Part shown: one piece after another, positions 1 to 15,728 of the stretch
Position numbering within the stretch: the stretch's first letter is position 1
Layout of the letters: each line of letters begins with the position of its first letter
Assembly: GCA_963663995.1 (NCBI GenBank)
Contig: OY760660.1
Span: 1,500,001-1,532,000, forward strand
Reading direction: 5' to 3'
DNA: 32,000 nucleotides
Origin: Erysipelotrichaceae bacterium
GTDB lineage: Bacteria; Bacillota_I; Bacilli_A; Erysipelotrichales; Erysipelotrichaceae
Notes under the pieces: model-generated
What the model was told of the DNA's origin: nothing
Database searches by the model: none
Seen by the model: only the letters and a program-made list of their open reading frames with translations
Made by a program: the position numbers and the translations under genes

Positions 1-398
1 ACTATAATTTCAATAAACATCACTATACTGGATTAAGGGCTTACGGATCTTCAAAAACAGCTCAGCTATTGAGTGTTTTAGTATTAAATGAAGATAAAAA
101 TTATAAAAACATGAGATTTTTGTGCATGCATCCTGGGGATGTTAAAAGCGATATTGGCAAAAATAATGGGTTCTTGTATCGTCTATTTAGTAAATTATTT
201 ATACAACCAATGCTCAGAGATCCGAAAACAAGTGCGATAGCTATTCATTGTTTATTATCAGATCCATTTTATCGAGAGCAACATGAACAATTCTATCATT
301 TAACAATACCAGAAATCGCAGCGAATCATGCGCGAGATTATGTTAAAGCTCAAGAGCTTATCGAACTATCGAATAAACTAATAAATGATTTTATTTAA
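1..398 (+). CDS. SDR-family oxidoreductase, C-terminal part (the 5' end lies upstream of the window)
   Basis: Frame 3 is open from nt 3. The translation reads ...HHYTGLRAYGSSKTAQLL..., with the Tyr-x-x-x-Lys catalytic motif of short-chain dehydrogenases at nt 42-56, followed by MHPGDVKS (HPG-x-V). The TTG at 69 in the ORF track is therefore internal, not the start. Confidence 0.6.
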   Translation, partial: YNFNKHHYTGLRAYGSSKTAQLLSVLVLNEDKNYKNMRFLCMHPGDVKSDIGKNNGFLYRLFSKLFIQPMLRDPKTSAIAIHCLLSDPFYREQHEQFYHLTIPEIAANHARDYVKAQELIELSNKLINDFI

Positions 399-466
399 TT
401 AATAAAGACAAATTAATGTATCGAAGTTATTAATTACCAAGTACAATTATCAAAAAAGCAAACTAG

Positions 467-494
467 TTGTTTTATACAACAAAACATGTAATAA
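467..494 (+). promoter_or_regulatory. Candidate sigma-A promoter for the MarR-led operon, with an overlapping imperfect inverted repeat
   Basis: TTGTTT (467-472), 16-nt spacer, TAATAA (489-494), with a TG just upstream. The inverted repeat AGTTGT-TTTAT-ACAAC (465-480) overlaps the -35 and would suit a MarR operator. Confidence 0.3.
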
Positions 495-514
495 TACGAA
501 TAAAGAGGTTTATT

Positions 515-937
515 ATGCTATTTTGTGATATTAGTATTCAACATAGATACGGTAAAAATAAATTGGATGAAATGCTTTTTAAGTATGGTTTAGACTGGTC
601 AAGAATGACAGTTATTCTAGTCGTGTCAGAAGTACCAGGAATAGAGCAAAATAAATTAATTCCTTTTTTACAGACAGATAAAGCTAATGTTTCAAAATTG
701 TTGAAAAAGATGGTTAATGAGAACTTAATCATTTTAAATCATAATGCAATAGATAAACGAATTAACAAGTGTTATTTGACAGAAAAGGGCAATGAATTCG
801 TGCCTAAAATGAATGAAATTTTAAGTGCTTGGGAATCGATTCTTTTTTCAGGAATAAAAGAAGATGAGCTTCAAGTTTATCTAAAGGTTAGTCAGAAAGT
901 ATCAAATAATCTTTTGCCAAATTGGGAGAATAAATAA
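515..937 (+). CDS. MarR-family transcriptional regulator
   Basis: Winged-helix region (QNKLIPFLQTDKANVSKLLKKMVNENLIILNHNAIDKRINKCYLTEKG) of typical MarR length. The start is moved to the ATG at 515, preceded by AAAGAGG. The stop overlaps the next start (TAATG at 935-939). Confidence 0.8.
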   Translation: MLFCDISIQHRYGKNKLDEMLFKYGLDWSRMTVILVVSEVPGIEQNKLIPFLQTDKANVSKLLKKMVNENLIILNHNAIDKRINKCYLTEKGNEFVPKMNEILSAWESILFSGIKEDELQVYLKVSQKVSNNLLPNWENK

Positions 938-2712
938 TGGGAATTCAAGGGAAAACTCTTTATGGGTTAATTTTATCTGGTGCAAATAATATTGTAGTAA
1001 ATGAAAATTTGTTAAATAAGATAAATGTTTATCCAGTACCCGATGGGGATACAGGTACAAATTTATCGCTTACAATGAATCAGATTCTTCTTGAGGCAAA
1101 AGAATTTGAACATGTTTTTATGCAAATCGAAAATATTGCAGAGATTGCTCTTAAAAATGCATATGGTAATTCAGGTATGATTTTTGCAGAATATTTAAGT
1201 GGTATGTCAGATTCTTTAATAAACCAAAAAGAGATACTAAAAATTGATTTGATAAAAGCCTTTAAAAATGCGTATTCTAAAGCACATAAATCGGTAGCAC
1301 AACCTAAAGAGGGAACAATTTTAAGTGTTATGAAGATTTGGTCCGAATTATTAGAAACCTCAATACATGATGAATTAGAACACTTATTTAACAGTAATCT
1401 GGAAAAACTTTATAAGTCAGTCGAAAATACAAAAAATCAAATGAAAATTCTTAGAGACAATAATGTTGTAGATGCCGGCGCTATGGCTTTCTTCTTTTTT
1501 ATTGAAGGAATGACTAAGTTCTTGAAAAATGGATTATCAATGAATCTCGAATTCAAAGCATCAAAAATGGAATTGATTAGTGAACCGTTAAAGTCCCTTG
1601 ATATTGGTGCTTATAGATATTGTTGTCAATATCAAGTAAAAGGAAATATTGATGTTAAAGAACTAGAAAAAGAGATTAATCCATATGGTGATTCAATTGT
1701 CATCCATCAAGATAATTCAAACATTAGTATTCATATGCATGCAAATGATCCTGCAATGCTTATGCAAAAACTTTTATCTATAGGTCCTGTTCTAAAACAC
1801 AAGATAGACGACATGTATTTGCAAACTCATATGAAGCATAAGCCAAAATCCAAAATTGCTATTTTAACTGATTCTATTGCAGATATACCTTCTACACTAA
1901 TTGATGATAACCAAGTCGCTGTATTACCTTTAAATATTATTATCGACTCAATTGTCTATAAGGATAAAATCACGATGACAGCTGACTACTTCTATAATTA
2001 TCTTGATGATTTCAGATTAAGTCCAACATCTTCTCAACCTAATACTGAGAGTATAGAACGTTATTTAAAACAAATATTGAACAATTATGATGAAGTTATT
2101 GGAATTTTTGTATCGTCTGAAATGAGTGGTACTTACAGTAATATTTTAAAAGCATTAGATAAATTAGACACAAAGAATAAAAAGATAAAAATAATAGACT
2201 CAAAAAGTAATTCTGCTGCTCAAGGATTGATTGTTTACGAAACTGTATTAAAACGGAATGAAGGATTAAATTTTGACGACCTTGTTGAATATATTGAGAG
2301 ATTAATAGAGAAGTCTGAAATTTTTGTCAGTGTTAAAGATTTAAAGTACATGATTAAAGGTGGAAGAGTTTCAAAAGTGACAGGTCAATTACTTTCATTT
2401 ATTAAACTAAAACCTGTAATATCGATTGATAAAAATGGGAAAGGTATTATTCCTTATAAAACATTAAGTCAAAAAAGTGCTATTAATGCAATTTCAAAAA
2501 AACTATCTAATGATATGAAAGAATTTGGTATTTCAAAGTATTCGTTAGTTTATGCAGACAATGAAATAGATCTTAGCGAACTTAAGCGTGTTGCTGAAGA
2601 AATCATCGGCAAAAAACCTGAATATGTAGAGTGTATATCACCGATTGTTGGCTTGAATGCAGGTAAGGGTGCGTTTGCGATAGCGTACTTAAAGAATGGA
2701 GTAAGTAAATGA
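937..2712 (+). CDS. Dak2 (DhaL/FakA-like kinase) domain fused to a complete DegV (FakB-like fatty-acid-binding) domain
   Basis: N-terminus: VYPVPDGDTGTNL, AYGNSGMIF, PKEGTILSV and VVDAGAMAF, which are the Dak2/FakA nucleotide-binding motifs. Middle: YRYCCQY...GDSIVIHQD...ISIHMHANDP, resembling the FakA middle domain. C-terminal ~290 aa: KIAILTDSIADIP...TSSQPN...VSSEMSGTYSN...DSKSNSAAQG...LKYMIKGGRVSK, which are typical DegV motifs. Confidence 0.8.
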   Translation: MGIQGKTLYGLILSGANNIVVNENLLNKINVYPVPDGDTGTNLSLTMNQILLEAKEFEHVFMQIENIAEIALKNAYGNSGMIFAEYLSGMSDSLINQKEILKIDLIKAFKNAYSKAHKSVAQPKEGTILSVMKIWSELLETSIHDELEHLFNSNLEKLYKSVENTKNQMKILRDNNVVDAGAMAFFFFIEGMTKFLKNGLSMNLEFKASKMELISEPLKSLDIGAYRYCCQYQVKGNIDVKELEKEINPYGDSIVIHQDNSNISIHMHANDPAMLMQKLLSIGPVLKHKIDDMYLQTHMKHKPKSKIAILTDSIADIPSTLIDDNQVAVLPLNIIIDSIVYKDKITMTADYFYNYLDDFRLSPTSSQPNTESIERYLKQILNNYDEVIGIFVSSEMSGTYSNILKALDKLDTKNKKIKIIDSKSNSAAQGLIVYETVLKRNEGLNFDDLVEYIERLIEKSEIFVSVKDLKYMIKGGRVSKVTGQLLSFIKLKPVISIDKNGKGIIPYKTLSQKSAINAISKKLSNDMKEFGISKYSLVYADNEIDLSELKRVAEEIIGKKPEYVECISPIVGLNAGKGAFAIAYLKNGVSK

Positions 2713-3476
2713 TTAATGAGACATTGATTTTAATCATTATGATTTATTTTACAATTTGGTTTGTGATAAACACTAAATTAAAAAATGCGGGTCTAATTGA
2801 TATTGCATGGGGTTCTGGTTTTGTCGTATTAGCGATCACACAACTCATTAAATATCCTAGTTCACTAGGAGTAATCCTCTTTTTGATGGTAGCCATTTGG
2901 GGATTGAGATTAAGTTATCATATAGGGAAAAGAAACATAAATAAACCTGAAGATCACCGTTATCAAAAATTCCGAGAAGATTGGGGAAAATCCTATTTGC
3001 TTCGCTCAATTTTTCAAATTTATGGCTTACAAGCAATACTGATGTTAATTGTTTCGACTTCGTTTCTTGATGGGATAATGCAAGCAGAACTTAGATCTCT
3101 TATCGGTTTATTCTGTGGTATTACTTTATATATAGTTGGTTTAATCTTTGAAATTATTTCTGACTATCAAATGGAACAGTTTAAAAAAGATAAAAAGAAT
3201 AGAGGGAAGCTAATGACAAGTGGTTTATGGTCATTAAGTCATCATCCGAACTATTTTGGAGAAGCAACGCTGTGGCTTGGAATAGCCATATCTTCTTTAT
3301 CTCTTGGCTCAAGTTTTGTCGCAATGATAGGCGCATTTACGATTTTCTATTTAGTGAGATTTTTATCAGGCACACCATTAATGGAAAAGAGAATTCGTGA
3401 GTATCAAGGTTTTGAAGCTTATGCAAAAGTAGTACCAATTTTTTTTCCAAAATTGAAAGGAACACTAAAAAAATGA
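2709..3476 (+). CDS. DUF1295 / steroid-5-alpha-reductase-like integral membrane protein
   Basis: Multi-TM protein with WGLRLSYHIGKRN..PEDHRYQKFRE, SDYQMEQFKKD and GLWSLSHHPNYFGEATLWLG motifs. ATGA overlap with the upstream gene. Confidence 0.8.
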   Translation: MINETLILIIMIYFTIWFVINTKLKNAGLIDIAWGSGFVVLAITQLIKYPSSLGVILFLMVAIWGLRLSYHIGKRNINKPEDHRYQKFREDWGKSYLLRSIFQIYGLQAILMLIVSTSFLDGIMQAELRSLIGLFCGITLYIVGLIFEIISDYQMEQFKKDKKNRGKLMTSGLWSLSHHPNYFGEATLWLGIAISSLSLGSSFVAMIGAFTIFYLVRFLSGTPLMEKRIREYQGFEAYAKVVPIFFPKLKGTLKK

Positions 3477-3871
3477 AATTTTTTCTTCACTTTGCAGTAA
3501 CATTTGTTGTATTTCTCGGTGTAGATCTATTATGGTTAGGATTTATCGCAAAAGATATCTATGCTAATGCTATTGGGCATCTAATGAGTCCTAACGTTAA
3601 TTGGTCAGCCGCAATAATTTTCTATATTATTTTTGTTATTGGTATTTTATATTTCGTCGTTGAACCAGCACTTGTTCATCAAGATATCATTAAGCTTCTT
3701 ATTGCGTCAGCTCTGTTTGGATTTGTATCCTATGCAACATTTGATCTAACCAGTCTTGCTACTTTGAAAGATTGGCCATTAAATATAACAATAATTGATT
3801 TGATTTGGGGAACTAGTTTATCTTTGCTTGTTTCTAGTATTTCGTATTATTTAATCAGATTAATTTCATAA
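3473..3871 (+). CDS. DUF2177-family small membrane protein
   Basis: 132 aa with four predicted TM segments. The VDLLWLGFIAKDIY N-terminus and YATFDLT motif are characteristic of DUF2177. ATGA overlap with the DUF1295 gene. Confidence 0.6.
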   Translation: MKFFLHFAVTFVVFLGVDLLWLGFIAKDIYANAIGHLMSPNVNWSAAIIFYIIFVIGILYFVVEPALVHQDIIKLLIASALFGFVSYATFDLTSLATLKDWPLNITIIDLIWGTSLSLLVSSISYYLIRLIS

Positions 3872-3890
3872 TTAGTCAAGGGAGACAAAT

Positions 3891-4835
3891 ATGTTCGCAA
3901 AACCTAAACTTCTAGTAAGTGATTGTCTTGGATTTAAAGCATGTCGATATGACGCATCACAAATAAATGCACCACTCATACAAGCGTTAGAGCCTTATGT
4001 TGAGTATATAAGAGTATGTCCAGAAGTGGCGATAGGATTGCCGATACCTAGAGATAGTTTAAGGCTGATACAAGATCTTGATCATCCAAAACTTGTTGTC
4101 TCAAAATCAGGTAATGATTTAACGGATGATATGAAGAACTTTTCAAATAAATTTTTGGGTAATTTACCCATGGTTCATGGATTTTTGTTGAAAAGCAGAT
4201 CACCCTCATGTGGAACGAAAGATGTTAAAGTATATCATACGTTTGGAGTATCAAGTGCAATCGGTAAGGGTAAAGGAATGTTTGCCCAAGAAGTCTATAA
4301 TCACTATCCAAATCATCCTATTGAAGAAGAGGGTAGACTAACTAACTTTGCGATTAGAGAGGAATACTTTTATAAGATATTTACACTAGCTGAGTTTGAT
4401 GAGTCCGTTAAAACAGTGAATGATTTAGTTAAGTTTCATACAAAACATAAGTATGCGATGATGTCGTATCAACCCTTGAAAATGACGGAGTTAGGACAAA
4501 TTGTCGCAAAATCGAATAAGAAAACACAAAGAAATGATATTGAAGATTATAAAAAAAGTCTTTATCGATTACTTTCGGAAACTACGAGTATTGGACGTAA
4601 TGTAAACACGTTAAGTCACCTCTATGGTTATTTCAAAGATAATTTAAATGATTTAGAAAAGGAACATTACTTCACAACACTTAAATTATACAAAAACCAA
4701 CAAATTCCTTTTTCAGTACCCATTTCGATTATTAATTCGTGGGCGCTTCGTTTCAAAAATGATTACTTATTAAACCAATCAATTTTAAATCCCTTTCCAA
4801 AGGAACTCATGAATCTACATGATAGTGGAAATTAA
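3891..4835 (+). CDS. YbgA-like protein (DUF523/TudS-like N-terminal domain plus DUF1722 C-terminal domain)
   Basis: N-terminus KPKLLVSDCLGFKACRYDAS...VCPEVAIGLPIPR...KSRSPSCG (Cys-rich DUF523 pattern). C-terminal helical part HTKHKYAMMSYQP...HLYGYFK resembles DUF1722. RBS GGGAGA lies upstream of the ATG. Confidence 0.7.
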   Translation: MFAKPKLLVSDCLGFKACRYDASQINAPLIQALEPYVEYIRVCPEVAIGLPIPRDSLRLIQDLDHPKLVVSKSGNDLTDDMKNFSNKFLGNLPMVHGFLLKSRSPSCGTKDVKVYHTFGVSSAIGKGKGMFAQEVYNHYPNHPIEEEGRLTNFAIREEYFYKIFTLAEFDESVKTVNDLVKFHTKHKYAMMSYQPLKMTELGQIVAKSNKKTQRNDIEDYKKSLYRLLSETTSIGRNVNTLSHLYGYFKDNLNDLEKEHYFTTLKLYKNQQIPFSVPISIINSWALRFKNDYLLNQSILNPFPKELMNLHDSGN

Positions 4836-4849
4836 TCAATAAGGAGAAG

Positions 4850-5473
4850 ATGATGAATTTAAAAGAAAAATATATTGATGCATTAAATGAAATTGATCAT
4901 GATAAGTGCATATTAATTCTAGATGAGTATTTAAGTCATAAAGATGCAAATATTGATGATACTTTTGATTTAGTATCACATGCTCTTTCACTTTCCGTGA
5001 ATTGTGAGACTGATGAAATTTGGACAGAACATGCAAAAACACAAATTGTTAGATCAAGTATTGAACTATTATCAGTTCATATTGTGAAAAAAACGCCACT
5101 AAAAAATAACGAAAAAATAGCGGTAATTTGCCCAAATGGAGAATATCACGAATTAGGCGCACGATTTGTCAGCGAAGCTATACGCAAAGAAGGATATAAC
5201 GCGCTCTTCTTAGGTAATAGTTTGCCTAATAAAGATATTGTCCAACTGGTAAAAGCATCTGATTTAAAAGCAATTGTTTTCAGTATTTCCAACTTTTTTA
5301 CAATGCATTCAATAAATACCGTCATAGATGAAATAAATAAAATAAAACCTGATTTAAAGATTATTCTTGGTGGTCAAGCAATTAATCAAAATCCAGGACA
5401 AATCCATGGAGAAAATTGTGAGCTCTGCACGACTTTTGACCAATTGAAGAGTACATTGGAGAATTTAAAATGA
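4850..5473 (+). CDS. Stand-alone cobalamin-binding protein: helical cap plus Rossmann B12-binding domain, CarH/LitR-type, with no DNA-binding domain
   Basis: Contains E-Y-H-E-L-G, then exactly 41 residues to S-I-S, then 26 residues to GG. This matches the (E/D)xHxxG-41-SxV/T-22..27-GG cobalamin-binding signature. An N-terminal ~95-aa helical segment carries W-T-E-H. The real start may be the second ATG at 4853, which has better spacing to AAGGAG. Confidence 0.75.
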   Translation: MMNLKEKYIDALNEIDHDKCILILDEYLSHKDANIDDTFDLVSHALSLSVNCETDEIWTEHAKTQIVRSSIELLSVHIVKKTPLKNNEKIAVICPNGEYHELGARFVSEAIRKEGYNALFLGNSLPNKDIVQLVKASDLKAIVFSISNFFTMHSINTVIDEINKIKPDLKIILGGQAINQNPGQIHGENCELCTTFDQLKSTLENLK

Positions 5474-6612
5474 AATTATCGTTTAATATTGCAAGACGAT
5501 TTTTAGCTTATAACAAAGGTCAAACACTGCTGATTGTATTGGGTATAGCGATTGGAATATCAGTTCAAATTTTTATTGGTCTGCTCATTTCTGGTCTACA
5601 AGATTCACTAATAGATAGCACGATTGGTAGTAGTGCACACATTACAATCAGTTCTGAAACAAGAGGTGAAAACTTTAACTTCGATGCTGATTATTTAAGC
5701 GAACTAAAAGATATGGAAAATTTTACACATGTTGGAGTAAGTGTTAGTGGTCCAGCTTTTGGTGTCTATGATGAGAAAAGTCAATCCATACTTCTTAGAG
5801 GTTTAGATGATGAAGTGCTTGATATCAACAATTTAGAAGGCAAAATCATAGAAGGAACATTAGATCTATATAGAGGAATTGTTATTGGTAAAGGTTTAGC
5901 TGAACAGTTAGAGATTGGTGTGAATGATGAATTAATCATTCAAACAATTAATAACAATACTTATAATCTTAATGTATCTGGAATTGCTGATTTTAAAGTC
6001 GCAGCACTCAATGATAGTTGGGTTATCTCTAAACCAATTGTTGTCCAAAATATTTTAGAATTAGCGGATCAAATTTCAGCAATTGAAATACAAGTTGACG
6101 AAGTATTTAATGCTGATTTATACGCTGCGAGTTTAAGCATACCAACAGGTTTATCAGTAATTGATTGGAAAGAACAAAACGCAGAGTTACTTTCTGGTTT
6201 AAATGGACAAAGTGTTTCTACGTATATGATTCAAGTTTTCGTACTGGTTTCGGTCGTTTTAGGCATTGCTTCAACTCTTGCGATTACTGTGCTTCAAAAG
6301 TCTAAACAAATTGGAATCTTAAAAGCGATGGGAATTCCTGATACTCAAGCATCCCTTATTTTTATATTTCAAGGAATAATTCTAGGTTTCTTAGGTGGTC
6401 TTCTTGGGATGGGCTTAGGTTATGGTTTATTAGAAATGTTCTCAACATTTGCGAAGGGAGCAGATGGGAATCCAATTATTCCAATTACCTTTGATTTACA
6501 ATTTATTTTATTCTCAGGATCAATTGCAGTTATATCATCATTTATCGCTTCACTAATCCCTGCAAGAAAATCACTTAAACTAACAGTTATTGAGGTAATA
6601 CGTAATGGCTAA
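5470..6612 (+). CDS. ABC transporter permease, FtsX/MacB/LolCE-like
   Basis: N-terminal TM, a large extracytoplasmic domain, and a C-terminal FtsX-type 3-TM bundle (KSKQIGILKAMGIPD...). ATGA overlap with the upstream gene. Confidence 0.8.
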   Translation: MKLSFNIARRFLAYNKGQTLLIVLGIAIGISVQIFIGLLISGLQDSLIDSTIGSSAHITISSETRGENFNFDADYLSELKDMENFTHVGVSVSGPAFGVYDEKSQSILLRGLDDEVLDINNLEGKIIEGTLDLYRGIVIGKGLAEQLEIGVNDELIIQTINNNTYNLNVSGIADFKVAALNDSWVISKPIVVQNILELADQISAIEIQVDEVFNADLYAASLSIPTGLSVIDWKEQNAELLSGLNGQSVSTYMIQVFVLVSVVLGIASTLAITVLQKSKQIGILKAMGIPDTQASLIFIFQGIILGFLGGLLGMGLGYGLLEMFSTFAKGADGNPIIPITFDLQFILFSGSIAVISSFIASLIPARKSLKLTVIEVIRNG

Positions 6613-7282
6613 AATATTAGAGCTTAAAAACATTTATAAATCTTATGGTAAAACAGAAGTATTACATGGGATTAGTTTTGAATTAGAAGAAGGATCATTT
6701 ACATCGATTATTGGTCAATCAGGTTCTGGTAAAAGTACATTGTTGAACATACTTGGAACATTAGATAATGCAAGTCGAGGTGACGTCACAATTGATGGCA
6801 CAGATGTTAAAACTTTAAAGAGTAAAAAACTAGCAGAGTTAAGAAACAATACACTTGGTTTTATTTTTCAATTTCACCATTTACTTCCAGAGTTTTCTGC
6901 CATTGAAAATATCTTGATGCCGATAAAAATTCAAAAAGGTAAAGTCACAAAAGACGACTTAGCATGGGCTGAAGAACTGATTGAAGTTGTGGGATTAAGT
7001 AAGGTTAAAAATAATAATGCTTTAAAAATGTCTGGGGGTCAGCAACAACGTACGGCTATTGCACGGGCACTAATGAATAAACCTAAGATGATCCTCGCCG
7101 ATGAGCCTACAGGTAATTTGGATAGTGATACAGCAGAAAGTATTTATCAATTGATGCGATCTGTTAATGAAAAATATAATATAAGTTTTCTGATTATCAC
7201 ACATGATCAAGCGATTGCCCAAAAAGCAGATCGAATTATTGAGATCAAAGATGGGAAAATTGTACTTGATGTTTCTAAATAA
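6605..7282 (+). CDS. ABC transporter ATP-binding protein (MacB/LolD-like)
   Basis: Walker A GQSGSGKST, signature LSGGQQQR (MSGGQQQR here), Walker B ILADEPTGNLD, H-loop ITHD. It overlaps the permease gene by 8 nt. Confidence 0.9.
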   Translation: MAKILELKNIYKSYGKTEVLHGISFELEEGSFTSIIGQSGSGKSTLLNILGTLDNASRGDVTIDGTDVKTLKSKKLAELRNNTLGFIFQFHHLLPEFSAIENILMPIKIQKGKVTKDDLAWAEELIEVVGLSKVKNNNALKMSGGQQQRTAIARALMNKPKMILADEPTGNLDSDTAESIYQLMRSVNEKYNISFLIITHDQAIAQKADRIIEIKDGKIVLDVSK

Positions 7283-7352
7283 ATACTAGTCAAGCAACAT
7301 AGTTACTCTTCAATCCTTTTCATAAAGAAGAGCTTAAGATATTAATAGACAT

Positions 7353-7390
7353 AAAAAAACTGGAATTCTATGATTGATTTCCAGTTTTTA
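7353..7390. terminator. Bidirectional rho-independent terminator between the convergent ABC operon and nrdJ
   Basis: A-run, stem ACTGGAA (7359-7365), 13-nt loop, stem TTCCAGT (7379-7385), T-run. Confidence 0.6.
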
Positions 7391-7397
7391 GTTTATT

Positions 7398-9908
7398 TTA
7401 TAATCCGCACTTAAGTTGAGCATTACAGTTGGTACATGTATTACATCCACCAATTTCCTCAACGGTACCTTCTAAACAGATAGGACAGATATCACCAACT
7501 TCAACACCGATATTTCGATCTTGTCTGTCAGCTCTCAAATCTGTTTTCTTTTCTTCAGGTTGTTGTTCTTTGACATTAACACCGAAGTCATGAACTAAGT
7601 CCATTTGAGCCCAGTTGTTATCACTGTCATTAGTAAGTGTTAGAACTTGAGAATCACGTGATCCATCAACGTAAACAGTTCCACCTTTTGCTTTACCATC
7701 ATATAATCTTTGATAAATACGTTGTACTTGTCTTACTGAGAATCCACGAGGTGCATTAACTGTTTTAGAGATTGATGAATCAATCCATCTTTGAATTGCA
7801 CATTGAACATCAGCATGCTCTTCAGGAGCTAAGTCCATAGCTGCGACAAAGTAGTCAGGTAAATTTTCACGTGTATATTCAGGGTTAAGTTTCAAGAAGT
7901 CATCGACGATTTGGGCATTTACTTCAATGAATTTGCCTAAGCGTCCTGAACGATAATAACTGAATGAGAAGTAAGGTTCTAAACCAGTCGACACACCGAC
8001 CATAGTTCCGGTAGAACCAGTCGGAGCGATTGTTAATAAGTGTGAGTTACGGATACCGTGTTTTAGAACTTCTTGTCTAATTTCTTCACTCATTTCTTTC
8101 ATATAACCAGTGTTAATGAAATCTTCACGAGATTCTAAGAAAGGGAATGAACCTTTTTCAGAAGCTAATTTAATTGAAGTCATATAAGCGGCTTCAGCGA
8201 TCGTCTTAAAGACTTGATCAATAGTTTTTAATGATTCAGGTGAACCATAACGAGTACGTGACCAAATTAGTAAGTCATGTAAACCCATAACGCCTAAACC
8301 AACACGACGTTCGCCTAAAGCTTGTGTCTTATTAGGTTCTAAGAAATAAGGAGTATCATCGATAACGTTATCTTGCATACGTACGGTTAAGGAAACAGTA
8401 TTCGCTAATTCTTCATAGAGAATTTCGCCAGTTTCACGATTAACAAAGTTAGCTAGGTTTACAGCCGCTAAGTTACATACTGAATATGGAGCTAATGGTT
8501 GTTCGCCACAAGGGTTTGTTGCGACAACTTTTTGTCCATAAGATTTAGCGTTTGTCATATCGTTAGCATTATCAATGAAGAAGATACCAGGTTCTGCAGA
8601 ATAAGTCGCACAGAAGTTGATTAAATCCCAAAGATCGCGTGCTTTGATGGTGCGATAAACTTTAACAGGATATCCCATTTCAGCCCATTCACGAACATCA
8701 CCAATCTCATGCCATCTAAGATCATAAACTTCTTTTTCCTCTTTCGAGAAGTTTTGAAGGTCTGGGAAACGTAATTCGAAATCACCATCGTTTTTAACTG
8801 CATCCATGAATTCTTTGGTTAGGGTAACGGAAATGTTAGCACCAGTTAAGAATTCAGGGTTAAGTACTTCTAAAGTACCACCATCAGCTAGTTTTTCACG
8901 AGCGTGATTAATAATATGTTGAGCAGCAGTTTTGCTTTCAGCTAACTCTTCATACATTTCTCTTTCTAAACGAGAGAATTCTTTATATTTAATATGCTTT
9001 TCAGCTTCTTTACGAATTTGTTCATCATTTGAATTTTCAATAAGCCATTTTAAGACTTTAGCATTTTGCATTTTCGAAATAATGAATTCAATAATATCTG
9101 GATGCCAGTCAGCCATCATGATCATTTGAGCACCACGACGTGAGCCACCTTGTTCAACAAGATGAGTCAAGTTAGCTAAATCATTTAACCAACTAACCGC
9201 ACCAGATGATTTACCACCAACCCCTTTTGCAGGGGCACCTTTTGGACGTAGGGTAGAACCATTAGTCCCAACACCACCTCCACGTGACATGATTTCCATA
9301 ACCTCTTTACGATGTTCAGAAATACCACCACGTGAGTCATGCACAAATGGCATAACGAAGCAGTTGAAGTAAGTAACTTGTGTCCCAGAACCGGCACCAA
9401 ATAAAACACGTCCAGCAGGAATAGTGTTCATCTTTTCTAATTGTTCAGAAAAGAGTTTTCCAAATTTTACTTTATCATCATCAGACTTCTCAGTAGAGGC
9501 TAATGCGTTACCGACACGGCGTGCAATTTGTTCATAATATATTTCAACGGGTTTATCAACTTGATGTAGAGGACGCTTAATAAGGCCGGTTTCGGCTTCG
9601 ATTTCATCATCTAATGATCCTCTAAACTCTTCTTCAAGTACGATTGAAACGATTTCATTTTCAATAGCTTGAACAGTTCCAATACCGCGTGAAGGGAATT
9701 TAGGGTCTTCTTTTACAACTGTAACAACGATATCACCCACACCTAAAGTTTTATGACTACGGTCTTTTTGTGCATAACGGTCAAGCATGACTAAACGAGA
9801 CACACCTTGGTGACTTAAGTTATCATCCTTTTCAATTGGATAAATATGCGGAAAATGCGTACTGATGTCCGCATTCAGCTTTTGTACTGTTACATCTGAA
9901 TACTTCAT
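7398..9908 (-). CDS. nrdJ: Class II (adenosylcobalamin-dependent) ribonucleotide reductase
   Basis: 836 aa with the RNR active-site region TNPCGEQPL...CNL. There is no ATP-cone and no adjacent beta subunit gene. The Cys-rich C-terminal tail ICPICLEGTVEEIGGCNTCTNCNAQLKCGL is typical of class II enzymes. It lies next to B12 salvage genes. Confidence 0.9.
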   Translation of the reverse strand: MKYSDVTVQKLNADISTHFPHIYPIEKDDNLSHQGVSRLVMLDRYAQKDRSHKTLGVGDIVVTVVKEDPKFPSRGIGTVQAIENEIVSIVLEEEFRGSLDDEIEAETGLIKRPLHQVDKPVEIYYEQIARRVGNALASTEKSDDDKVKFGKLFSEQLEKMNTIPAGRVLFGAGSGTQVTYFNCFVMPFVHDSRGGISEHRKEVMEIMSRGGGVGTNGSTLRPKGAPAKGVGGKSSGAVSWLNDLANLTHLVEQGGSRRGAQMIMMADWHPDIIEFIISKMQNAKVLKWLIENSNDEQIRKEAEKHIKYKEFSRLEREMYEELAESKTAAQHIINHAREKLADGGTLEVLNPEFLTGANISVTLTKEFMDAVKNDGDFELRFPDLQNFSKEEKEVYDLRWHEIGDVREWAEMGYPVKVYRTIKARDLWDLINFCATYSAEPGIFFIDNANDMTNAKSYGQKVVATNPCGEQPLAPYSVCNLAAVNLANFVNRETGEILYEELANTVSLTVRMQDNVIDDTPYFLEPNKTQALGERRVGLGVMGLHDLLIWSRTRYGSPESLKTIDQVFKTIAEAAYMTSIKLASEKGSFPFLESREDFINTGYMKEMSEEIRQEVLKHGIRNSHLLTIAPTGSTGTMVGVSTGLEPYFSFSYYRSGRLGKFIEVNAQIVDDFLKLNPEYTRENLPDYFVAAMDLAPEEHADVQCAIQRWIDSSISKTVNAPRGFSVRQVQRIYQRLYDGKAKGGTVYVDGSRDSQVLTLTNDSDNNWAQMDLVHDFGVNVKEQQPEEKKTDLRADRQDRNIGVEVGDICPICLEGTVEEIGGCNTCTNCNAQLKCGL

Positions 9909-9984
9909 ATTAAAAACCCCTCTTGATTGATACGTTTTATTTTATCATGAACCCTTATATAGCATTCATGAAAATGATTTACAT

Positions 9985-10446
9985 TTATAACTCTTTTGAA
10001 AAAATATAATCTGATAATCGATTCATATATTTTAGTATATCTAAATTTATACTCTGTGATAATGAATAAGCAATGATAGTTCTCTCGACTGTACGAACCT
10101 TAGCTCTCAACACATGTAAATGAGCTTTTAATTCATCATCGAAAGGGAAAATAAATTGATGCGTTAAATTCTGTTTTTTTGCGATTTCATCTTCGAAATA
10201 GTGGATATGTTCATTTAAATCAATATCAACTAAGTAGCCTGAAAGAACACTACTTATTTGATAGAGGTCTTGAACAATCATTTCCCATTCCTGTTTATCA
10301 AGCTGATGTTTGGATTGGAAGTAAATGATCTCACTCGATAATACGTCTAACTCACCAATAAGGTTTATTAAAGGATCGCTTTTGGATAAGCGTTTATTTT
10401 TGATATCAGTTTGACCAGTGTCGCCTTTTTTAGTAGTGATTGTCAT
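9985..10446 (-). CDS. PduO-type ATP:cob(I)alamin adenosyltransferase
   Basis: The N-terminus TKKGDTGQTDI...RLSKSDPLINLIGELDVLSSEI matches the TxxGDxGxT / ExxGxxDEL pattern of PduO-type adenosyltransferases. 153 aa. Confidence 0.75.
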   Translation of the reverse strand: MTITTKKGDTGQTDIKNKRLSKSDPLINLIGELDVLSSEIIYFQSKHQLDKQEWEMIVQDLYQISSVLSGYLVDIDLNEHIHYFEDEIAKKQNLTHQFIFPFDDELKAHLHVLRAKVRTVERTIIAYSLSQSINLDILKYMNRLSDYIFSKEL

Positions 10447-10948
10447 ATTTTGCTTTTCTCATCAGCTTTTCTACAACTAAGTAGAGTGGCTTGTATAAGA
10501 GTATTATAAGGATATAATTGCTTGTTGCGTGAACTAAATCAAAAAGCAGGCCACGTATCCAATATATGTATCCCATCGTAAACCCATATAACAGTGCATT
10601 TTGAAGAGCGAATAGAAAGCCAAACATAAAACCAAACAAAGCTCCAAGAATGGCCCAAATTTGTTCTCTATCTCTTGAGAAAGCTTTAAATATTTGGACA
10701 ATAATCATCCATAATGTCCATATCCATAGGTAAGCAATAACCCAATCTCCAAAGCCCCAAACTAGTGCTTCTAAAATAGTGAATATAAAAACCACAATCA
10801 GCGACTCTTTCCAAGTAATAAATTGAGCAATGATCAAGAACCACAAGGTTACAAGTTCAACATTGGGAAGCGAGGCTGCAGCTATTTGTATCACAAAGGC
10901 GGTGGCGGCGATAAGGGCTAATAAGACCCAACGCTTTAAAGAACGCAT
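10430..10948 (-). CDS. Small polytopic membrane protein, ECF-transporter S-component-like (candidate cobalamin-specific, CbrT-like)
   Basis: 172 aa, about 5-6 TM segments, aromatic/Gly-rich. It sits between the DUF4430 and adenosyltransferase genes, downstream of a cobalamin riboswitch. The substrate assignment comes from context only. Confidence 0.45.
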   Translation of the reverse strand: MRSLKRWVLLALIAATAFVIQIAAASLPNVELVTLWFLIIAQFITWKESLIVVFIFTILEALVWGFGDWVIAYLWIWTLWMIIVQIFKAFSRDREQIWAILGALFGFMFGFLFALQNALLYGFTMGYIYWIRGLLFDLVHATSNYILIILLYKPLYLVVEKLMRKAKYDNHY

Positions 10949-10949
10949 T

Positions 10950-11396
10950 TTAGTAAGCTGAAGTAAAATCTAATTCAAAGCTATCTTGATCGTATATACT
11001 TTGTAAATCAATACCATTACAGAAACCAGCTTCGACACAATCTTTATTGTTTTCTGAGTTAACTAACCACCATGGGCCAGTACTCATATCTTCAGTCGCA
11101 TATTCATTAATAGATATAATCATACGACCCCAAGCATCTGATTTTTCACCACTGTAATCTAAACTAAGTTCGTCGTAGAATTCATCGACTTCATCCAGTA
11201 ATTCTCCCAGTGTTTCTGAATCTGTATGAACGGTTTCTTCAAAGACGACAACATCACCATTTTCATTATCAACTACGATTGATAGTTGAATATCTTTTTC
11301 CCCAGGCATGGTTGGGAAAATAATGGGTTTTAATGCGAAATAAACAACGGCTGCTAAAGTTAAAGCGATAATCGCTCTAATATAATTTTTCTTCAT
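10950..11396 (-). CDS. DUF4430-like (transcobalamin beta-domain-like) membrane-anchored protein
   Basis: N-terminal TM anchor (MKKNYIRAIIALTLAAVVYF) and a C-terminal WGRMIISINEY...GPWWLVNSENN...IYDQDSFELDF pattern. The start is set at the ATG at 11396 (RBS AAAGGA), not at 11426. It is the first gene after the cobalamin riboswitch. Confidence 0.6.
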   Translation of the reverse strand: MKKNYIRAIIALTLAAVVYFALKPIIFPTMPGEKDIQLSIVVDNENGDVVVFEETVHTDSETLGELLDEVDEFYDELSLDYSGEKSDAWGRMIISINEYATEDMSTGPWWLVNSENNKDCVEAGFCNGIDLQSIYDQDSFELDFTSAY

Positions 11397-11413
11397 ATAG
11401 GCACATCCTTTCA

Positions 11414-11650
11414 ATAAAAAACACATCCTTAAGATGTGTAAAAAAGACGGTTTGTGTCTTTTTATCTTAAGTCCCAGAAGATAATGGATTTGCTTTTGTT
11501 GGCAGGTCTACTGGCTGATCGTTCATCCTTTAAGCACCTTCCCGAAATTCTCTTTCAGTGGTATCTTGCTTATCGTCACGACCTACAGTTGCTGGGACAG
11601 CTTTGTTTATTACAAATTCCCTATTGAGCTCTTAGAGCACCAAAGTAAGC
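11414..11650 (-). promoter_or_regulatory. Cobalamin (B12) riboswitch with terminator/antiterminator expression platform
   Basis: The minus-strand RNA contains GGUGC...AAUAGGGAA, GCUGUCCCAGCAACUGUAGG, AGAUACCACUG, GGGAAGG and the B12 box AGCCAGUAGACCUGCC (11501-11516). It ends in the hairpin ACACAUC-UUAAG-GAUGUGU plus a U-run (11414-11439). A TATAAT -10 element lies on the minus strand at 11657-11662. Confidence 0.85.
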
Positions 11651-11702
11651 ATGTTAATTATAGAGCATATTGTGGTAAATTAATGTGAAATTTCATAAAA
11701 AC

Positions 11703-12418: not shown

Positions 12419-14004
12419 CAGACTGTCGACAAAATAGTTGGCAGTCTTTTTTAATGATTTGGTAAAATAGAGGTATCAAAGAGAGTATAAATCTATGATC
12501 ACTAAAACCAATCAAAAAGCAGAAGAGATGAGTGTCATCATCTTAGAGAATTTCATCCCAGAAAACCATCTACTACGGAAAATTAATCAATGGATTAACT
12601 TCCGTTTTATTTATGATTTAGTGGAACCCTTATATTCCAAGATTGGACGTCCTAGTATTGAACCAGTCATTCTCTTTAAACTTCTATTCATAAATCATTT
12701 GTATGGATACAACAGTATGAGAAGAACGATTGAAGAAACGAAAGTAAACTTAGCGTATCGTTGGTTTATTGGGCTTAGTGTAGATGAAAAGATACCTCAC
12801 TTCTCTGATTTCTCAAAGAACTATACACGTAAGTTCTCTCAAGAGATAGAAGTGATGCATCCTCTAACAGGTGTCATTGAAGTCAAGACGGTCTTCGCAG
12901 CTGTCTTTGATCAAATACTACTTCAAGCGCACGAGAAGGACTTTATTCGAGCGGCTCATATCTATATGGATTCAACCCATATTAAAGCGAATGCGAATAA
13001 ACGAAAATCAGAAGAAGTTAAGATTCTCGAAGAACGAAAACACTATCAAGATGCCTTAAATCAAGAGTGTGATGAGTATAGTGAATATAAAGGAATTAAG
13101 ATAGCTAAGGAACCCATTCTTAAAGAAAAACGAATCAAGCAAAGTACGGTTGATCCTGAGAGTGGAAACTTCCATAAAGGTGAACACGAGAAACAATTTG
13201 CTTATTTAGCGCAGACAGCCTGTGATGAGAATGGCTTTATTCTAGGGGTCAAAGTGAATCCAGGGAATCTTCATGACAGTACGACGTTTAGTGAAGCTTT
13301 TGATGAAGTCCATCAAGTCTATGGTCAAAACATACGAAGTATTGGACTAGATGCTGGGTATAAAGCACCCTATATCGCACGTGAGTTAATAGAACGAAAG
13401 ATTACGCCTTTAATGCCTTATAGTCGACCTAAAGGCAGAAAGAATAATGAAGATGAGTTGAAAGTCGTTAAGAAAGAATTTAAATATGATAAGAGTGCAG
13501 ATGTCTATCTTTGTCCACATGGAAAGCGTTTAAGTCCAAGAAGTATAAATAAAGAAACAGGTTATATCACTTATCGAAGTACCACAAAAGACTGTAAGAG
13601 CTGTCCACTCAGAGATCATTGTCTATCTAAAAGCAGTTCAACTAAAACGGTCCAAAGACATCTATGGCAGTCTTATATGGATGAAGTAGAAATGATCCGT
13701 CATACTTCATATCATTCGCTCTATTATCCCAAACGAAAACAAACCATTGAGCGTATCTTTGGGGATGGGAAAGAGAAACATGGACTAAGATATACCCGCT
13801 ATAAAGGACTCAAGAAGGTACAAGATTATACGTATCTGCTTTTCGCTTGTATGAATATGAAAAAAATAGCGATTTGGAGTGACCGTAAAGCACTCGCTAC
13901 CACACTTAATTCGCTGTTTTATTCATTTTTAAAGCCATTGATCCAAAGAAAAACGAGGTTATCGTTTTCTTTCAACGTTTAACCCCGTATTTGTCTACAG
14001 TCTG
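12419..14004 (+). mobile_element. IS1182-family insertion sequence (1586 bp)
   Basis: Imperfect terminal inverted repeats: CAGACTGTCGACAAAATA (left) and CAGACTGTAGACAAATA (reverse complement of the right end). It has a single DDE transposase ORF and is flanked by a 19-bp direct repeat. A hairpin plus T-run at 12420-12452 lies just inside the left end. Confidence 0.8.
12495..13982 (+). CDS. IS1182-family (IS5-like) DDE transposase
   Basis: The N-terminal domain (NHLLRKINQWINFRFIYDLVEPLYSKIGRPSIEPVILFKLLFINHLYGYNSMRRTIEE...LAYRWFIGL) is typical of IS1182/IS5 transposases. Also present are DSTHIKANAN, LDAGYK and a C-terminal ERIFGDGKEKHGLRYTRYKGLKKV motif. Confidence 0.85.
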   Translation: MITKTNQKAEEMSVIILENFIPENHLLRKINQWINFRFIYDLVEPLYSKIGRPSIEPVILFKLLFINHLYGYNSMRRTIEETKVNLAYRWFIGLSVDEKIPHFSDFSKNYTRKFSQEIEVMHPLTGVIEVKTVFAAVFDQILLQAHEKDFIRAAHIYMDSTHIKANANKRKSEEVKILEERKHYQDALNQECDEYSEYKGIKIAKEPILKEKRIKQSTVDPESGNFHKGEHEKQFAYLAQTACDENGFILGVKVNPGNLHDSTTFSEAFDEVHQVYGQNIRSIGLDAGYKAPYIARELIERKITPLMPYSRPKGRKNNEDELKVVKKEFKYDKSADVYLCPHGKRLSPRSINKETGYITYRSTTKDCKSCPLRDHCLSKSSSTKTVQRHLWQSYMDEVEMIRHTSYHSLYYPKRKQTIERIFGDGKEKHGLRYTRYKGLKKVQDYTYLLFACMNMKKIAIWSDRKALATTLNSLFYSFLKPLIQRKTRLSFSFNV

Positions 14005-14394: not shown

Positions 14395-15639
14395 CTATCC
14401 TAACATTTCATCCTGCATTTTTCTAAGTTTCCATACAGTTGTTGATGTATCTAATGCTACATCTTCTTCACTAATGAAGGTTCCTTTAGCGATATCGCGT
14501 TTTGCGACAACATTTCCAGAAATTAAACCGATAGGAACTAAATTCTTTTCTTTAACAACAACGTGATCTTCAATTACACCACGTACACAGAAACCACCAA
14601 TACCATCTAGTCTTTCTCCAGCTTTAATGTCTTTTTTCGCAACAGCGACTGTATCAGATACTTGACCACATAATGGAACGATTGAATGTTCACCTTTAAG
14701 GACAGCTTTTGCGATTGAAATAGGTGTTTCAAGTGAACCTAAGTGATAAGGACGATAAATGATTTGATGATCATTGTCAGTTTTATTCATATAACGGAAT
14801 GTTTCATCAGCCATTTTTGTTTTAGCTTTAACGATAACGAATACACCAGGAGCAATACCATCGACATATTCGACACAGCCATAGTTATTAAGGACGCCAC
14901 CTTCATCTTTAGTACGAAGTTGGGCAACAGTTCCTTTTAAGTCACCAGATACACCATGCATACCTGTAACATCAGCTTTATAACCAATCGCATTGGATAA
15001 TAAAGTCATTTCAGCCATTGTTTTTGTACCATCAGCAAATGCAGCTAACATATGAGCTGCCATGTGACGATCTGATGCTTCTTGAGCAACCGTATCAGGA
15101 TTTGCTTCAATACGTAATTTGTTGTTTTTTCCTTTACCAGCAACAAGTACTTCCATACCCATTGATTTAGCGAATTCATATAATTCGAAGGTTGCGGCAG
15201 GTTCATCACCATCGGATCCTGTGTAGGATAGTCCGGCAGCTTGGAATAGTTTGTAAAGTAATGGACCAACTGTAATATCGATTTCTACATTAAGTAGAAC
15301 AACGTGCTTTTTAGAGATTAAGCACTCCATGCAGATTTTAGCACCGACTTCAGGAACGCCTGTTGCGTCAACTACAACATCCACATTTTCGTTTTGGATA
15401 ACTTCTCTAAAGTTTGTAGTTGTAAGTGTATCTACCTTAATTGTTGCATTATTTGCAAACTCTTCAGCAGCTTTCTTAGCGTTATCTAAGTTAATATCAC
15501 TAACACCTGTTACCACCATGCCTGGGATTGTAGCGATTTGAGAGATCATGCCTCGACCCATTTGGCCAGCACCGATAACTCCGACGCGAATTGGATTGTT
15601 ATTAGTTTCGCGTTCTAATAATTCTTGATAAATTGTCAT
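14395..15639 (-). CDS. NAD(P)-dependent oxidoreductase, homoserine-dehydrogenase-like with a C-terminal SAF domain (COG4091-type), copy 1
   Basis: Rossmann motif VGVIGAGQMGRGM at the N-terminus. C-terminal SAF-like part: VAVAKKDIKAGERLDGIGG...VAKRDIAKGTFIS. The start is moved to the ATG at 15639 (RBS GGAAAGG), which aligns with the start of the paralogue at 27323. The 47-codon extension in the ORF track covers the promoter. Confidence 0.7.
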   Translation of the reverse strand: MTIYQELLERETNNNPIRVGVIGAGQMGRGMISQIATIPGMVVTGVSDINLDNAKKAAEEFANNATIKVDTLTTTNFREVIQNENVDVVVDATGVPEVGAKICMECLISKKHVVLLNVEIDITVGPLLYKLFQAAGLSYTGSDGDEPAATFELYEFAKSMGMEVLVAGKGKNNKLRIEANPDTVAQEASDRHMAAHMLAAFADGTKTMAEMTLLSNAIGYKADVTGMHGVSGDLKGTVAQLRTKDEGGVLNNYGCVEYVDGIAPGVFVIVKAKTKMADETFRYMNKTDNDHQIIYRPYHLGSLETPISIAKAVLKGEHSIVPLCGQVSDTVAVAKKDIKAGERLDGIGGFCVRGVIEDHVVVKEKNLVPIGLISGNVVAKRDIAKGTFISEEDVALDTSTTVWKLRKMQDEMLG

Positions 15640-15669
15640 ATAGTTACCTTTCCATGATAAAGAATCATC

Positions 15670-15711: not shown

Positions 15712-15728
15712 TTTTGTTAATGCATATG

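Follow-up and report, generated by a model that had tools for sequence, protein, structure and literature searches.

The described systems closest to the locus analysed here are the cobalamin photoreceptors of the CarH, LitR and photocobilin type, the gene neighbourhoods of heliorhodopsins, the MacB/LolCDE-type ATP-binding cassette (ABC) transporters and the light- and singlet-oxygen-linked regulons of proteobacteria. The locus is an operon on the + strand of a 32,000-nucleotide stretch of Erysipelotrichaceae bacterium DNA (GenBank assembly GCA_963663995.1, contig OY760660.1, positions 1,500,001 to 1,532,000; hereafter the window), in which the gene of a vitamin B12-binding protein is joined to those of an FtsX-family permease and an ABC ATPase. 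For cobalamin photoreceptors a light-response signature consisting of GxxW, EH, GxxH and GxxxP has been published (PMC11796333), and standalone photocobilins regulate a partner by protein contact (PMC10979010). Heliorhodopsin genes in Firmicutes and Chloroflexi have DegV, DUF2177 and DUF1295 genes as neighbours, including Dak2-DegV fusions, and light-linked membrane lipid remodelling has been proposed for these neighbours (10.1101/2021.02.16.431466); Dak2-DegV fusions had been reported earlier as uncharacterised proteins (Erni 2006, as cited in 10.1101/2021.02.16.431466). Photolyase, short-chain dehydrogenase/reductase (SDR), alpha/beta-hydrolase, DUF2177 and ABC transporter genes have also been found beside heliorhodopsins, and a heliorhodopsin modulates an ABC transporter on light (HeR-OmrDE; PMC11109279). 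RudS is a characterised tRNA 4-thiouridine (s4U) desulfidase that shortens the growth delay induced by ultraviolet A (UVA) light (PMC11417400), and the RudS/ybgA family is linked to the UVA response and lies beside photolyase or MerR genes in proteobacteria (PMC11417400, PMC4336711). The Shewanella RpoE2-ChrR regulon contains ybgA-phrB-cfa and photolyase-SDR units (PMC4336711), and DUF1295, DUF2177 and DUF1365 respond to singlet oxygen by induction in Chlamydomonas (PMC4067076); these two papers document the proteobacterial light and singlet-oxygen background on which a first-pass annotation of the window had drawn. Cobalamin photoreceptor domains, MacB-type pumps, Dak2-DegV fusions, RudS and the heliorhodopsin-associated lipid set are each already known separately.

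Open reading frame (ORF) listing and domain searches place nine genes on the + strand of positions 1–7282, the 3' fragment of an SDR gene and eight packed genes at 515–7282. The eight genes encode, in order, a MarR-like regulator, a Dak2-DegV fusion, a DUF1295 protein, a DUF2177 protein, a RudS-type protein, the B12-binding protein, the permease and the ATPase, the last three being referred to below as the trio. All junctions between them are overlaps or gaps of ≤19 nt; measured directly from MarR onward they are −1 (TAATG), −4 (ATGA), −4 (ATGA), +19, +14, −4 (ATGA) and −8 (ATGGCTAA), in exact agreement with the tightly joined operon and the overlaps described in the first-pass annotation. The reading that we favour, and to which we give about an even chance, is that of a composite operon in which the B12 protein is the regulatory subunit of the pump, light-driven photolysis of adenosylcobalamin is the likeliest signal and photodamage functions have been recruited to the pump.

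The trio is the constant part of the locus. Genome and metagenome scans with the window proteins gave 57 mapped loci, and clusters of the B12 clade were dereplicated at 70% identity, with only those having sufficient flanking sequence (26) being counted. The first homolog search, with 16 clusters, understated the family, which profile and permease searches show to be much larger. The FtsX and ABC genes lie directly downstream of the B12 gene in 26 of the 26 dereplicated clusters of the clade. The hosts are Erysipelotrichaceae, Clostridia (Herbivorax, Pseudobacteroides cellulosolvens, Acetivibrio alkalicellulosi, Christensenellaceae and Proteinivorax hydrogeniformans) and one Actinobacteriota, a Solirubrobacterales metagenome-assembled genome (MAG), with B12 protein identity falling to ~28%. 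The junctions are kept across phyla, as the B12 and FtsX genes overlap by −4 (ATGA) in 29 of 41 loci and meet at −1 to +1 nt in 11 more, and the FtsX and ABC genes overlap by −8 in 38 of 39. Outgroup loci with a canonical W-x9-E-H protein (L033, L034, L048 and L049) have no FtsX neighbour in any of the four cases. A deletion scar in L035 (3228–3469), where B12 residues 2–66 abut the last 20 ABC codons and all of FtsX is gone, indicates that the trio was lost there as one unit in a single event. In Clostridia the neighbours of the trio (WYL, GGGtGRT, HtrA, dockerin, aldo-keto reductase and GNAT genes) are unrelated to one another, and recurrent Clostridia partners were rejected on this ground. 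With unrelated flanks both in Clostridia and on a transketolase/phosphotransferase system (PTS) backbone, the trio can be regarded as a self-contained module, and the invariant unit appears to be B12-FtsX-ABC alone, standing by itself in most lineages. The Solirubrobacterales locus (L054, 1–10721) has a YknX-type membrane-fusion adaptor gene after the trio; a few kb upstream of the trio lie genes for a RACo corrinoid activase and for three methyltransferases of the URO-D family. In the literature that we searched, no link of a B12-binding domain to FtsX, MacB or an ABC transporter came up, and no description was found of an obligate pairing between a standalone B12-domain clade and a MacB-type ABC transporter.

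The B12 protein (4850–5473, + strand; 207 amino acids) is a standalone, predicted cytoplasmic protein with no transmembrane (TM) segment or signal peptide. It contains a Rossmann domain with a PF02310 match of 53 bits, and in the AlphaFold2 (AF2) model, which has a predicted local distance difference test (pLDDT) value of 91.2, helices 4–13, 17–28, 35–48 and 54–81 precede this domain and form a four-helix cap. The best 50 Foldseek matches in the PDB are all B12 photoreceptor domains, including TtCarH, CtMerR, LitR and the photocobilins, the last giving the maximum TM-score of 0.80; the matches to the CarH and photocobilin cobalamin-binding domains are full-length, and the top PDB profile match is likewise a photocobilin (4.6e-11). 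Domain searches and the AF2 model revealed only the cap and the Rossmann domain, with no DNA-binding, globin or enzyme domain. Since the MerR-type N-terminal DNA-binding domain is absent, the B12 protein is not a CarH/LitR transcription factor and is at most a CarH-like sensor module. The invariant positions are W58-x-E60-H61, G97-E-Y-H100-E-L-G103, G122xxxP126, S145 and G174-G175, the invariance of the His-on residues (G97-E-Y-H100-E-L-G103, S145 and G174-G175) having been counted over 16 sequences. The E-x-H-x-x-G motif is retained across 40 loci, and the His-on motif of the clade carries a Glu as in CarH rather than the Asp of the methyltransferases. Three of the four elements of the light signature, EH, GxxH and GxxxP, are invariant in the clade and GxxW is not present; the Trp lies two residues before E-H (W-x-E-H), compared with ten in TtCarH (W131, E141 and H142; W-x9-E-H). 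Among the best 150 representatives from a search of 1.84 billion cluster representatives, 87 have W-x-E-H and 33 have only the canonical W-x9-E-H, and the W-x-E-H variant marks the proteins as a distinct clade. The earlier description of a CarH-type B12 module without a DNA-binding domain is thus borne out by the fold and most signature residues, with a different Trp spacing. Because the canonical CarH spacing is missing, a photoreceptor function for the B12 protein is plausible rather than established. Possible Rosetta-stone fusions were rejected, since no domain other than B12 was present in ten longer representatives, of which the five that were read have low-complexity or mis-called extensions. 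Heme or tetrapyrrole efflux of the HrtBA type with a SCHIC-type heme sensor was also considered and rejected: HrtB does not occur among the solved structures matched at E ≤ 1e-3, and the complete cobalamin His-on signature is kept in the B12 protein.

The permease (5470–6612, + strand) has PF12704 (MacB_PCD) and PF02687 (FtsX) domains and the canonical MacB/LolC topology, with TM1 at residues 22–40, an extracytoplasmic MacB_PCD domain at ~41–255 and TM2–4 at 256–365. Its best solved relatives are LolF, LolE/LolC, YtrF and MacB. The ATPase (6605–7282, + strand) is of the LolD/MacB/FtsE type. The permease scores 105 bits against the LolCE equivalog, the cutoff of which is 362, and the ATPase 268 bits against LolD with a cutoff of 308, so that, judged from these scores and domains, the pump is best classed as a MacB/LolCDE-type (type VII) ABC transporter and not as the LolCDE lipoprotein-release equivalog. 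The Erysipelotrichaceae hosts are monoderm, and outer-membrane lipoprotein release is therefore inapplicable. The routine source labels of the B12 proteins and permeases, 'methanogenic corrinoid protein MtbC1' and 'lipoprotein-releasing system permease', are corrected by the present analysis. MacB-type transporters are not importers and take their substrates from outside the cytoplasm; import or export of B12 was rejected as the principal function for this reason and because the organism has a riboswitch-controlled ECF-S-like gene, and it is further disfavoured by B12 genes adjoining the trio on one backbone only.

The genes upstream of the trio are of several kinds. The SDR fragment (3–398, + strand; 131 codons) is the 3' part of an SDR-family oxidoreductase gene, directly upstream on the same strand as had been noted; on a 100%-identical contig (L001) the gene is complete (304 amino acids, adh_short match) and has a SnoaL-like gene before it. 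Because the SDR gene is lacking in L010, the 85%-identity relative, it is a strain-level addition. The MarR-like winged-helix protein (515–937, + strand; 140 amino acids) matches MarR_2 with 24.4 bits (cutoff 27) and MarR with 23.8 bits (cutoff 24.6), just below the Pfam thresholds, and BilQ, TcaR and SlyA models below their cutoffs, while its L010 ortholog is a PF01047 match; the gene is confined to the lineage of the window, L001, L010 and L011. The fusion protein (937–2712, + strand; 591 amino acids) is comprised of Dak2 (4.9e-30), a FakA-like middle domain (FakA-like_M, 1.2e-17) and DegV (2.9e-62, over the full profile length), with a DGDTG Mg-binding motif at residues 36–40. Its score of 133 bits against the FakA equivalog compares with a cutoff of 975, and it is a predicted single-chain fatty-acid-kinase-like protein. 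Orthologous fusions lie downstream of the ABC gene in L015–L021 and L044 and upstream of DUF1295 in L046. The DUF1295 membrane protein (2709–3476, + strand; Pfam match) belongs to a family that co-occurs with the trio in 5 dereplicated clusters, and the fungal protein UsgR, which is DUF1295-like, acts as an ene-reductase of the membrane (PMC8597850). The DUF2177 protein (3473–3871, + strand; Pfam match) is a small membrane protein with four hydrophobic segments. Its gene is directly upstream of the B12 gene wherever it is present (L007/8, L015–21, L041–44 and L046), the window lineage being the exception, with the RudS gene in between.

The RudS-type protein (3891–4835, + strand) combines TudS/DUF523 (PF04463, 1e-34) with DUF1722 (PF08349, 7.7e-33). 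Its Cys12, Cys43 and Cys107 correspond to the [4Fe-4S]-cluster cysteines Cys12/44/110 of Salmonella RudS (PMC11417400). This gene had been read as YbgA and as part of a membrane-lipid system; the RudS architecture instead places it in the tRNA s4U desulfidase family (PMC11417400), and it is predicted to encode a tRNA s4U desulfidase and not a membrane-lipid protein. It is found upstream of the trio only in the L002/L003 and L010 lineages.

Relatives that share the lysS...ispD backbone carry nested versions of the operon. The identical contig L001 has SnoaL and the full SDR gene added upstream, the 85% relative L010 has MarR to ABC without SDR, a 61% relative has only the DUF523+DUF1722 gene with B12-FtsX-ABC, and 46–49% relatives have B12-FtsX-ABC alone. 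The nested versions indicate that the trio was there first and that MarR, the Fak-like fusion, DUF1295, DUF2177 and the DUF523+DUF1722 gene came to lie upstream of it later. The focal operon is thus composite, with MarR, SDR/SnoaL and RudS as lineage-specific additions that separate the trio from an older promoter. In a second Erysipelotrichaceae lineage (L015–L021) on another backbone, an AraC gene lies upstream and the order is DUF1295-DUF2177-B12-FtsX-ABC-Dak2/DegV fusion; this locus is convergent with PAS-GGDEF-HD and photolyase genes; a carboxylesterase gene lies upstream of it, and DegV genes are close by. A third context, L046 (31% B12 identity, GH94 flank), has fusion-DUF1295-DUF1475-DUF2177-B12-FtsX-ABC. 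The small DUF1475-like gene between DUF1295 and DUF2177 in this most divergent full cluster (3207–3548) may encode a further member of the lipid set. Dak2-DegV, DUF1295 and DUF2177 therefore occur with the trio in three arrangements (window/L010, L015–L021 and L046), and the co-conservation on which the first-pass annotation had made its proposal depend is found in three gene orders or backbones; L044 likewise has all three families with the trio. Its proposal of a single membrane-lipid system stands in so far as the lipid set recurs with the trio; it does not stand as one indivisible system, the invariant part being B12-FtsX-ABC only. The membrane-protein set, which had been taken for an undescribed combination, proves to be known, as DegV/Dak2-DegV, DUF2177 and DUF1295 are already heliorhodopsin neighbours (10.1101/2021.02.16.431466). 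For the attachment of this heliorhodopsin-type lipid set to a B12-pump trio, no description was found in the literature.

The first convincing terminator is a bidirectional intrinsic hairpin at 7344–7397 (core 7355–7389) between the convergent genes, with a fold energy of −16.8 kcal/mol (z = −4.26) and A7 and U5 flanks, which agrees with the earlier statement that no terminator precedes ~7353–7390. It is common to the focal operon and the convergent NrdJ operon. A consensus scan gave two weak + strand terminator-like sites within coding sequence (3271–3290 and 4168–4180), and its total of 5 terminator-like sites is at chance level (shuffle expectation 2.6 ± 1.9). The same kind of scan gave no evidence of internal promoters, the 40 promoter-like matches against 40.3 expected being at chance level and hence uninformative. 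The operon has a lower GC content; recent horizontal transfer was rejected as its cause, since the GC content at third codon positions (GC3) of 0.19–0.26 equals that of neighbours such as NrdJ (0.245). The lower GC gives no hint of foreign origin, because the difference is not a third-codon-position effect.

In the favoured reading, which builds on the observed order and coupling of the genes, their co-conservation and the fold and motifs of the B12 protein, we infer that this protein binds cobalamin, responds to light and contacts the pump. It would be the sensor subunit of the MacB-type pump, made in fixed proportion to it through translational coupling, and the state of the bound cobalamin would change its oligomeric state or conformation. 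The most likely signal would be photolysis of adenosylcobalamin with loss of the adenosyl ligand, as in CarH, and the neighbouring PduO enzyme could supply the adenosylcobalamin. The change in the B12 protein would alter its contact with the transporter and thereby switch ATPase or mechanotransmission activity. Insertion of the lipid module, RudS and MarR between the old promoter/operator of the trio and the trio would cause all of them to be made together. The lipid module, consisting of the Dak2-DegV kinase, the reductase-like DUF1295 protein and DUF2177, would be a portable one that accompanies photoreceptors. The pump may extract a lipid-like substrate from the outer leaflet, the fatty-acid-kinase fusion may re-activate free fatty acids to acyl-phosphate, and DUF1295 and DUF2177 may modify damaged acyl chains. 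Light damage would then be handled in lipids by the kinase fusion, DUF1295 and DUF2177, in tRNA by RudS and, in relatives, in DNA by photolyase. A bolder form of this reading, which we put forward only tentatively, is that the W-x-E-H clade constitutes a new class of cobalamin photoreceptor that, with neither DNA binding nor a fused enzyme as its output, directly gates a MacB-type pump by light, and that Dak2-DegV/DUF1295/DUF2177 is a photoreceptor-agnostic salvage or repair pathway for photo-oxidised membrane acyl chains, recruited independently by heliorhodopsins and the B12 system.

Among the neighbours, photolyase genes lie ≤9 kb from the trio in 4 dereplicated clusters on 2 backbones, and on the lysS backbone photolyase directly follows the trio in some relatives. 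The absence of photolyase noted earlier thus holds for the window itself, in which neither photolyase nor a CFA (cyclopropane fatty acid) synthase was found, and does not extend to the relatives. In L013, L014, L035 and L047, photolyase and ABM monooxygenase genes follow nrdJ on the same strand. Neither the scanned ORFs of the window nor the annotated loci gave a rhodopsin family match, and the gene and domain listings of the window and the loci examined contain no extracytoplasmic function (ECF) sigma/anti-sigma pair, MerR/LitR regulator or CFA-synthase-like gene.

Several observations weigh against a light-driven pump. No light-related neighbours of the trio were found in Clostridia or on the transketolase backbone, and many of its hosts are strict anaerobes from habitats expected to be dark. 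In CarH a Trp at the W-x9-E-H spacing packs against the adenosyl group; the clade has no Trp at this spacing, its invariant one being two residues ahead of E-H, and its upper-ligand pocket may therefore not be the same as in CarH. In the PDB profile search the corrinoid methyl-transfer proteins 4JGI and MtaC (2I2X) score nearly as high as the photoreceptors, and the B12 domain was not found naturally fused to a transporter domain. The B12 riboswitch/PduO/NrdJ operon on one backbone and the methyltransferase and RACo genes at the actinobacterial locus fit B12 sensing equally well.

The B12-related operon is convergent to the focal one (7398–11659, − strand). It is headed by a cobalamin riboswitch (11484–11659, 102 bits), followed by genes for two small proteins without a Pfam match (10430–11426, − strand) of 158 and 172 amino acids, a PduO-type adenosyltransferase and, as the last gene, NrdJ. 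The 172-residue protein is polytopic and ECF-S-like, and its L004 ortholog matches the ECF (energy-coupling factor) S-component family PF12822; the 158-residue protein has one N-terminal hydrophobic segment (single TM). Both are candidate cobalamin uptake components, and the operon is, through PduO, a plausible source of adenosylcobalamin for the B12 protein. A riboswitch that shuts off at high B12 would also lower the B12-requiring NrdJ, unless the 77-nt gap before nrdJ contains a promoter. NrdJ adjacency to the trio is limited to the lysS...ispD backbone. In L001, nrdJ is split (8820–11331; called genes of 736 and 117 amino acids) in comparison with the intact 836 amino acids in the window, which is probably an assembly or sequencing error.

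The main rival explanation is a sensor of cobalamin status or of the cobalt redox state, in which the B12 protein would report cobamide availability and regulate the MacB-type pump in the dark, much as trans-inhibition domains do in ABC importers; in that case the pump's role would lie in corrinoid-related functions of the envelope or in a physiological switch that depends on B12. We consider this explanation rather unlikely, although it draws on much of the evidence just given: on the lysS...ispD backbone the trio is everywhere convergent to the cobalamin-riboswitch/ECF-S-like/PduO/NrdJ operon, the Solirubrobacterales locus has genes for RACo and for URO-D-type corrinoid methyltransferases upstream of the trio, the clade does not have the canonical spacing of the adenosyl-packing Trp, the profile search ranks the corrinoid proteins 4JGI and MtaC close to the photoreceptors, and many hosts are anaerobes by their generally known physiology. 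However, B12 genes adjoin the trio in just one synteny block, none being present on the AraC/photolyase, GH94, transketolase and Clostridia backbones, and where the trio has recurrent neighbours at all, these are photolyase, RudS and the heliorhodopsin-type lipid set rather than genes of B12 metabolism. In its E-H and Glu-type His-on motifs the B12 protein matches photoreceptor domains, and MacB-type transporters do not import. The focal operon also has no riboswitch before it. No known RNA element was found there, the sole match in the window at the Rfam gathering threshold being the one at 11484–11659 on the opposite strand, and riboswitch control of the focal operon was rejected accordingly.

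An AerR-like role, in which the B12 protein would bind MarR or AraC for light- or B12-dependent transcription and the pump and lipid genes would merely be co-regulated effectors, is improbable; this role and chance packing are both less likely than the light and status-sensor readings. B12-binding antirepressors without a DNA-binding domain do exist (AerR; 7TE2 is a profile match), a MarR gene heads the focal operon, an AraC gene lies upstream in L007 and L015–L021, and the promoter contains a conserved operator-like inverted repeat, AGTTGT-N5-ACAAC(A), at 465–481, 35 nt 5' of the MarR start codon. This palindrome is conserved amid otherwise diverged DNA in the 85% relative L010 and is a perfect 7+5+7 in L010/L011. 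The general form AGTTnn-N5-nnAACT (L004 9972–9988, L009 9971–9986, L010 5611–5627 and L013 9964–9980) is placed 3' of the −10 box, ahead of the B12 gene, in the MarR-less relatives L004–6, L009 and L013, its half-sites co-vary (GT/AC versus AA/TT), and in 763 kb of loci the strict motif occurs only rarely (0.029 per kb). The occurrence of the repeat in MarR-less loci speaks against the AerR-like role and indicates that the repeat predates the MarR insertion. The repeat may thus be bound by a protein other than MarR, or by others besides MarR, and could serve an unlinked regulator as operator or be a hairpin of the 5' untranslated region. The first-pass annotation had named the 465–495 region for a test of MarR binding; the conserved repeat at 465–481 lies within it, and its assignment to MarR is weakened by the MarR-less relatives. 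The regulator family, moreover, varies by lineage, most trio loci have no adjacent regulator, and the sole constant partner of the B12 protein is the FtsX/ABC pair with its conserved translational overlap.

The weakest explanation, that there is no functional link beyond the trio, with accessory genes inserted at a permissive site after lysS and tight packing owed to a compact genome, can point to same-backbone relatives with the trio alone or the trio and RudS, to SDR/SnoaL genes in one strain only, to an IS1182 transposase elsewhere in the window as a sign of a plastic locus and to most trio loci carrying no accessory genes, but we hold it to be very doubtful, as the fusion, DUF1295 and DUF2177 stand in three orders with three flanks, on the same strand and tightly packed, at B12 identities of 31–40% between the loci, a threefold chance association of three specific uncommon families is unlikely, and GC3 gives no sign of recent foreign origin.

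The remainder of the window is housekeeping and includes ispD, the IS1182 transposase, sorbitol PTS genes, a 2-oxoacid dehydrogenase complex, lipoate enzymes, ssb, gdpP and rplI. The IS1182-family transposase gene (12495–13982) lies between ispD and the sorbitol PTS genes and is absent from this position in L002 and L010. Two paralogous pairs are present, DRL-type oxidoreductases (14395–15780 and 26088–27323, − strand) and LplA/B-type lipoate ligase genes (17976–18662 and 24507–25184). A radical-SAM gene at 25181–25804 encodes just 207 amino acids and may be truncated.

If the B12 protein does control the pump, cobalamin sensors would have a new mode of output, the control of membrane transport or mechanotransmission, and the trio would offer synthetic biology a compact three-gene part responsive to green light or B12. 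The locus also bears on the open question of the role of heliorhodopsins and their DegV/DUF2177/DUF1295 neighbours, which becomes testable in a second system. The presence of the lipid set beside an unrelated putative photoreceptor suggests that the set responds to consequences of light, such as damaged membrane lipids, rather than reflecting a property of rhodopsins.

When the focal proteins are compared with the known systems, the B12 protein shares the four-helix cap and Rossmann fold of CarH, LitR and the photocobilins (TtCarH 5C8D, SasPcob 8J2W and CtMerR 8JBS), together with the Glu-type E-x-H-x-x-G, E-H and G-x-x-x-P motifs. It differs in having W-x-E-H in place of W-x9-E-H and in lacking a DNA-binding, globin or enzyme domain, and unlike in the CarH family, the gene of the clade invariably comes coupled to those of a MacB-type ABC transporter; our literature search did not find such an output for this family. 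The pump resembles MacB, LolCDE, LolDF, YtrEF and YknXYZ in its four-TM FtsX permease, large MacB_PCD domain and separate LolD-like ATPase, and the actinobacterial trio extends the likeness to YknXYZ with its YknX-type adaptor; no type VII transporter is known to have a cytoplasmic cobalamin-binding partner such as the one proposed for the focal pump. The kinase-like fusion contains the Dak2 domain with DGDTG, the FakA middle domain and the full DegV/FakB domain of the FakA/FakB system, which is two-component, whereas the fusion is one polypeptide in which DegV replaces the FakA C-domain. The RudS-type protein has the TudS and DUF1722 domains and the three cluster-ligating cysteines of RudS, whereas E. 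coli YbgA is DUF1722 alone; the partner in E. coli ybgA-phr is photolyase, and the focal gene lies instead within the operon of the B12 protein and pump. The sigmaE-ChrR and LitR regulons have SDR, DUF1295, DUF2177, ybgA and, in the relatives, photolyase in common with the focal loci, but they are run by ECF sigma factors or MerR/LitR, whereas the focal loci have MarR, AraC or no regulator. Heliorhodopsin neighbourhoods in Firmicutes present the same accessory families, including the Dak2-DegV fusion, beside a putative photoreceptor. There the photoreceptor is a 7-TM retinal protein and here the sensor is a soluble B12 protein, and OmrDE is a heterodimeric multidrug exporter whereas the focal transporter is of the MacB/FtsX type VII; the concept that the two would share is that of a photoreceptor modulating an ABC transporter.

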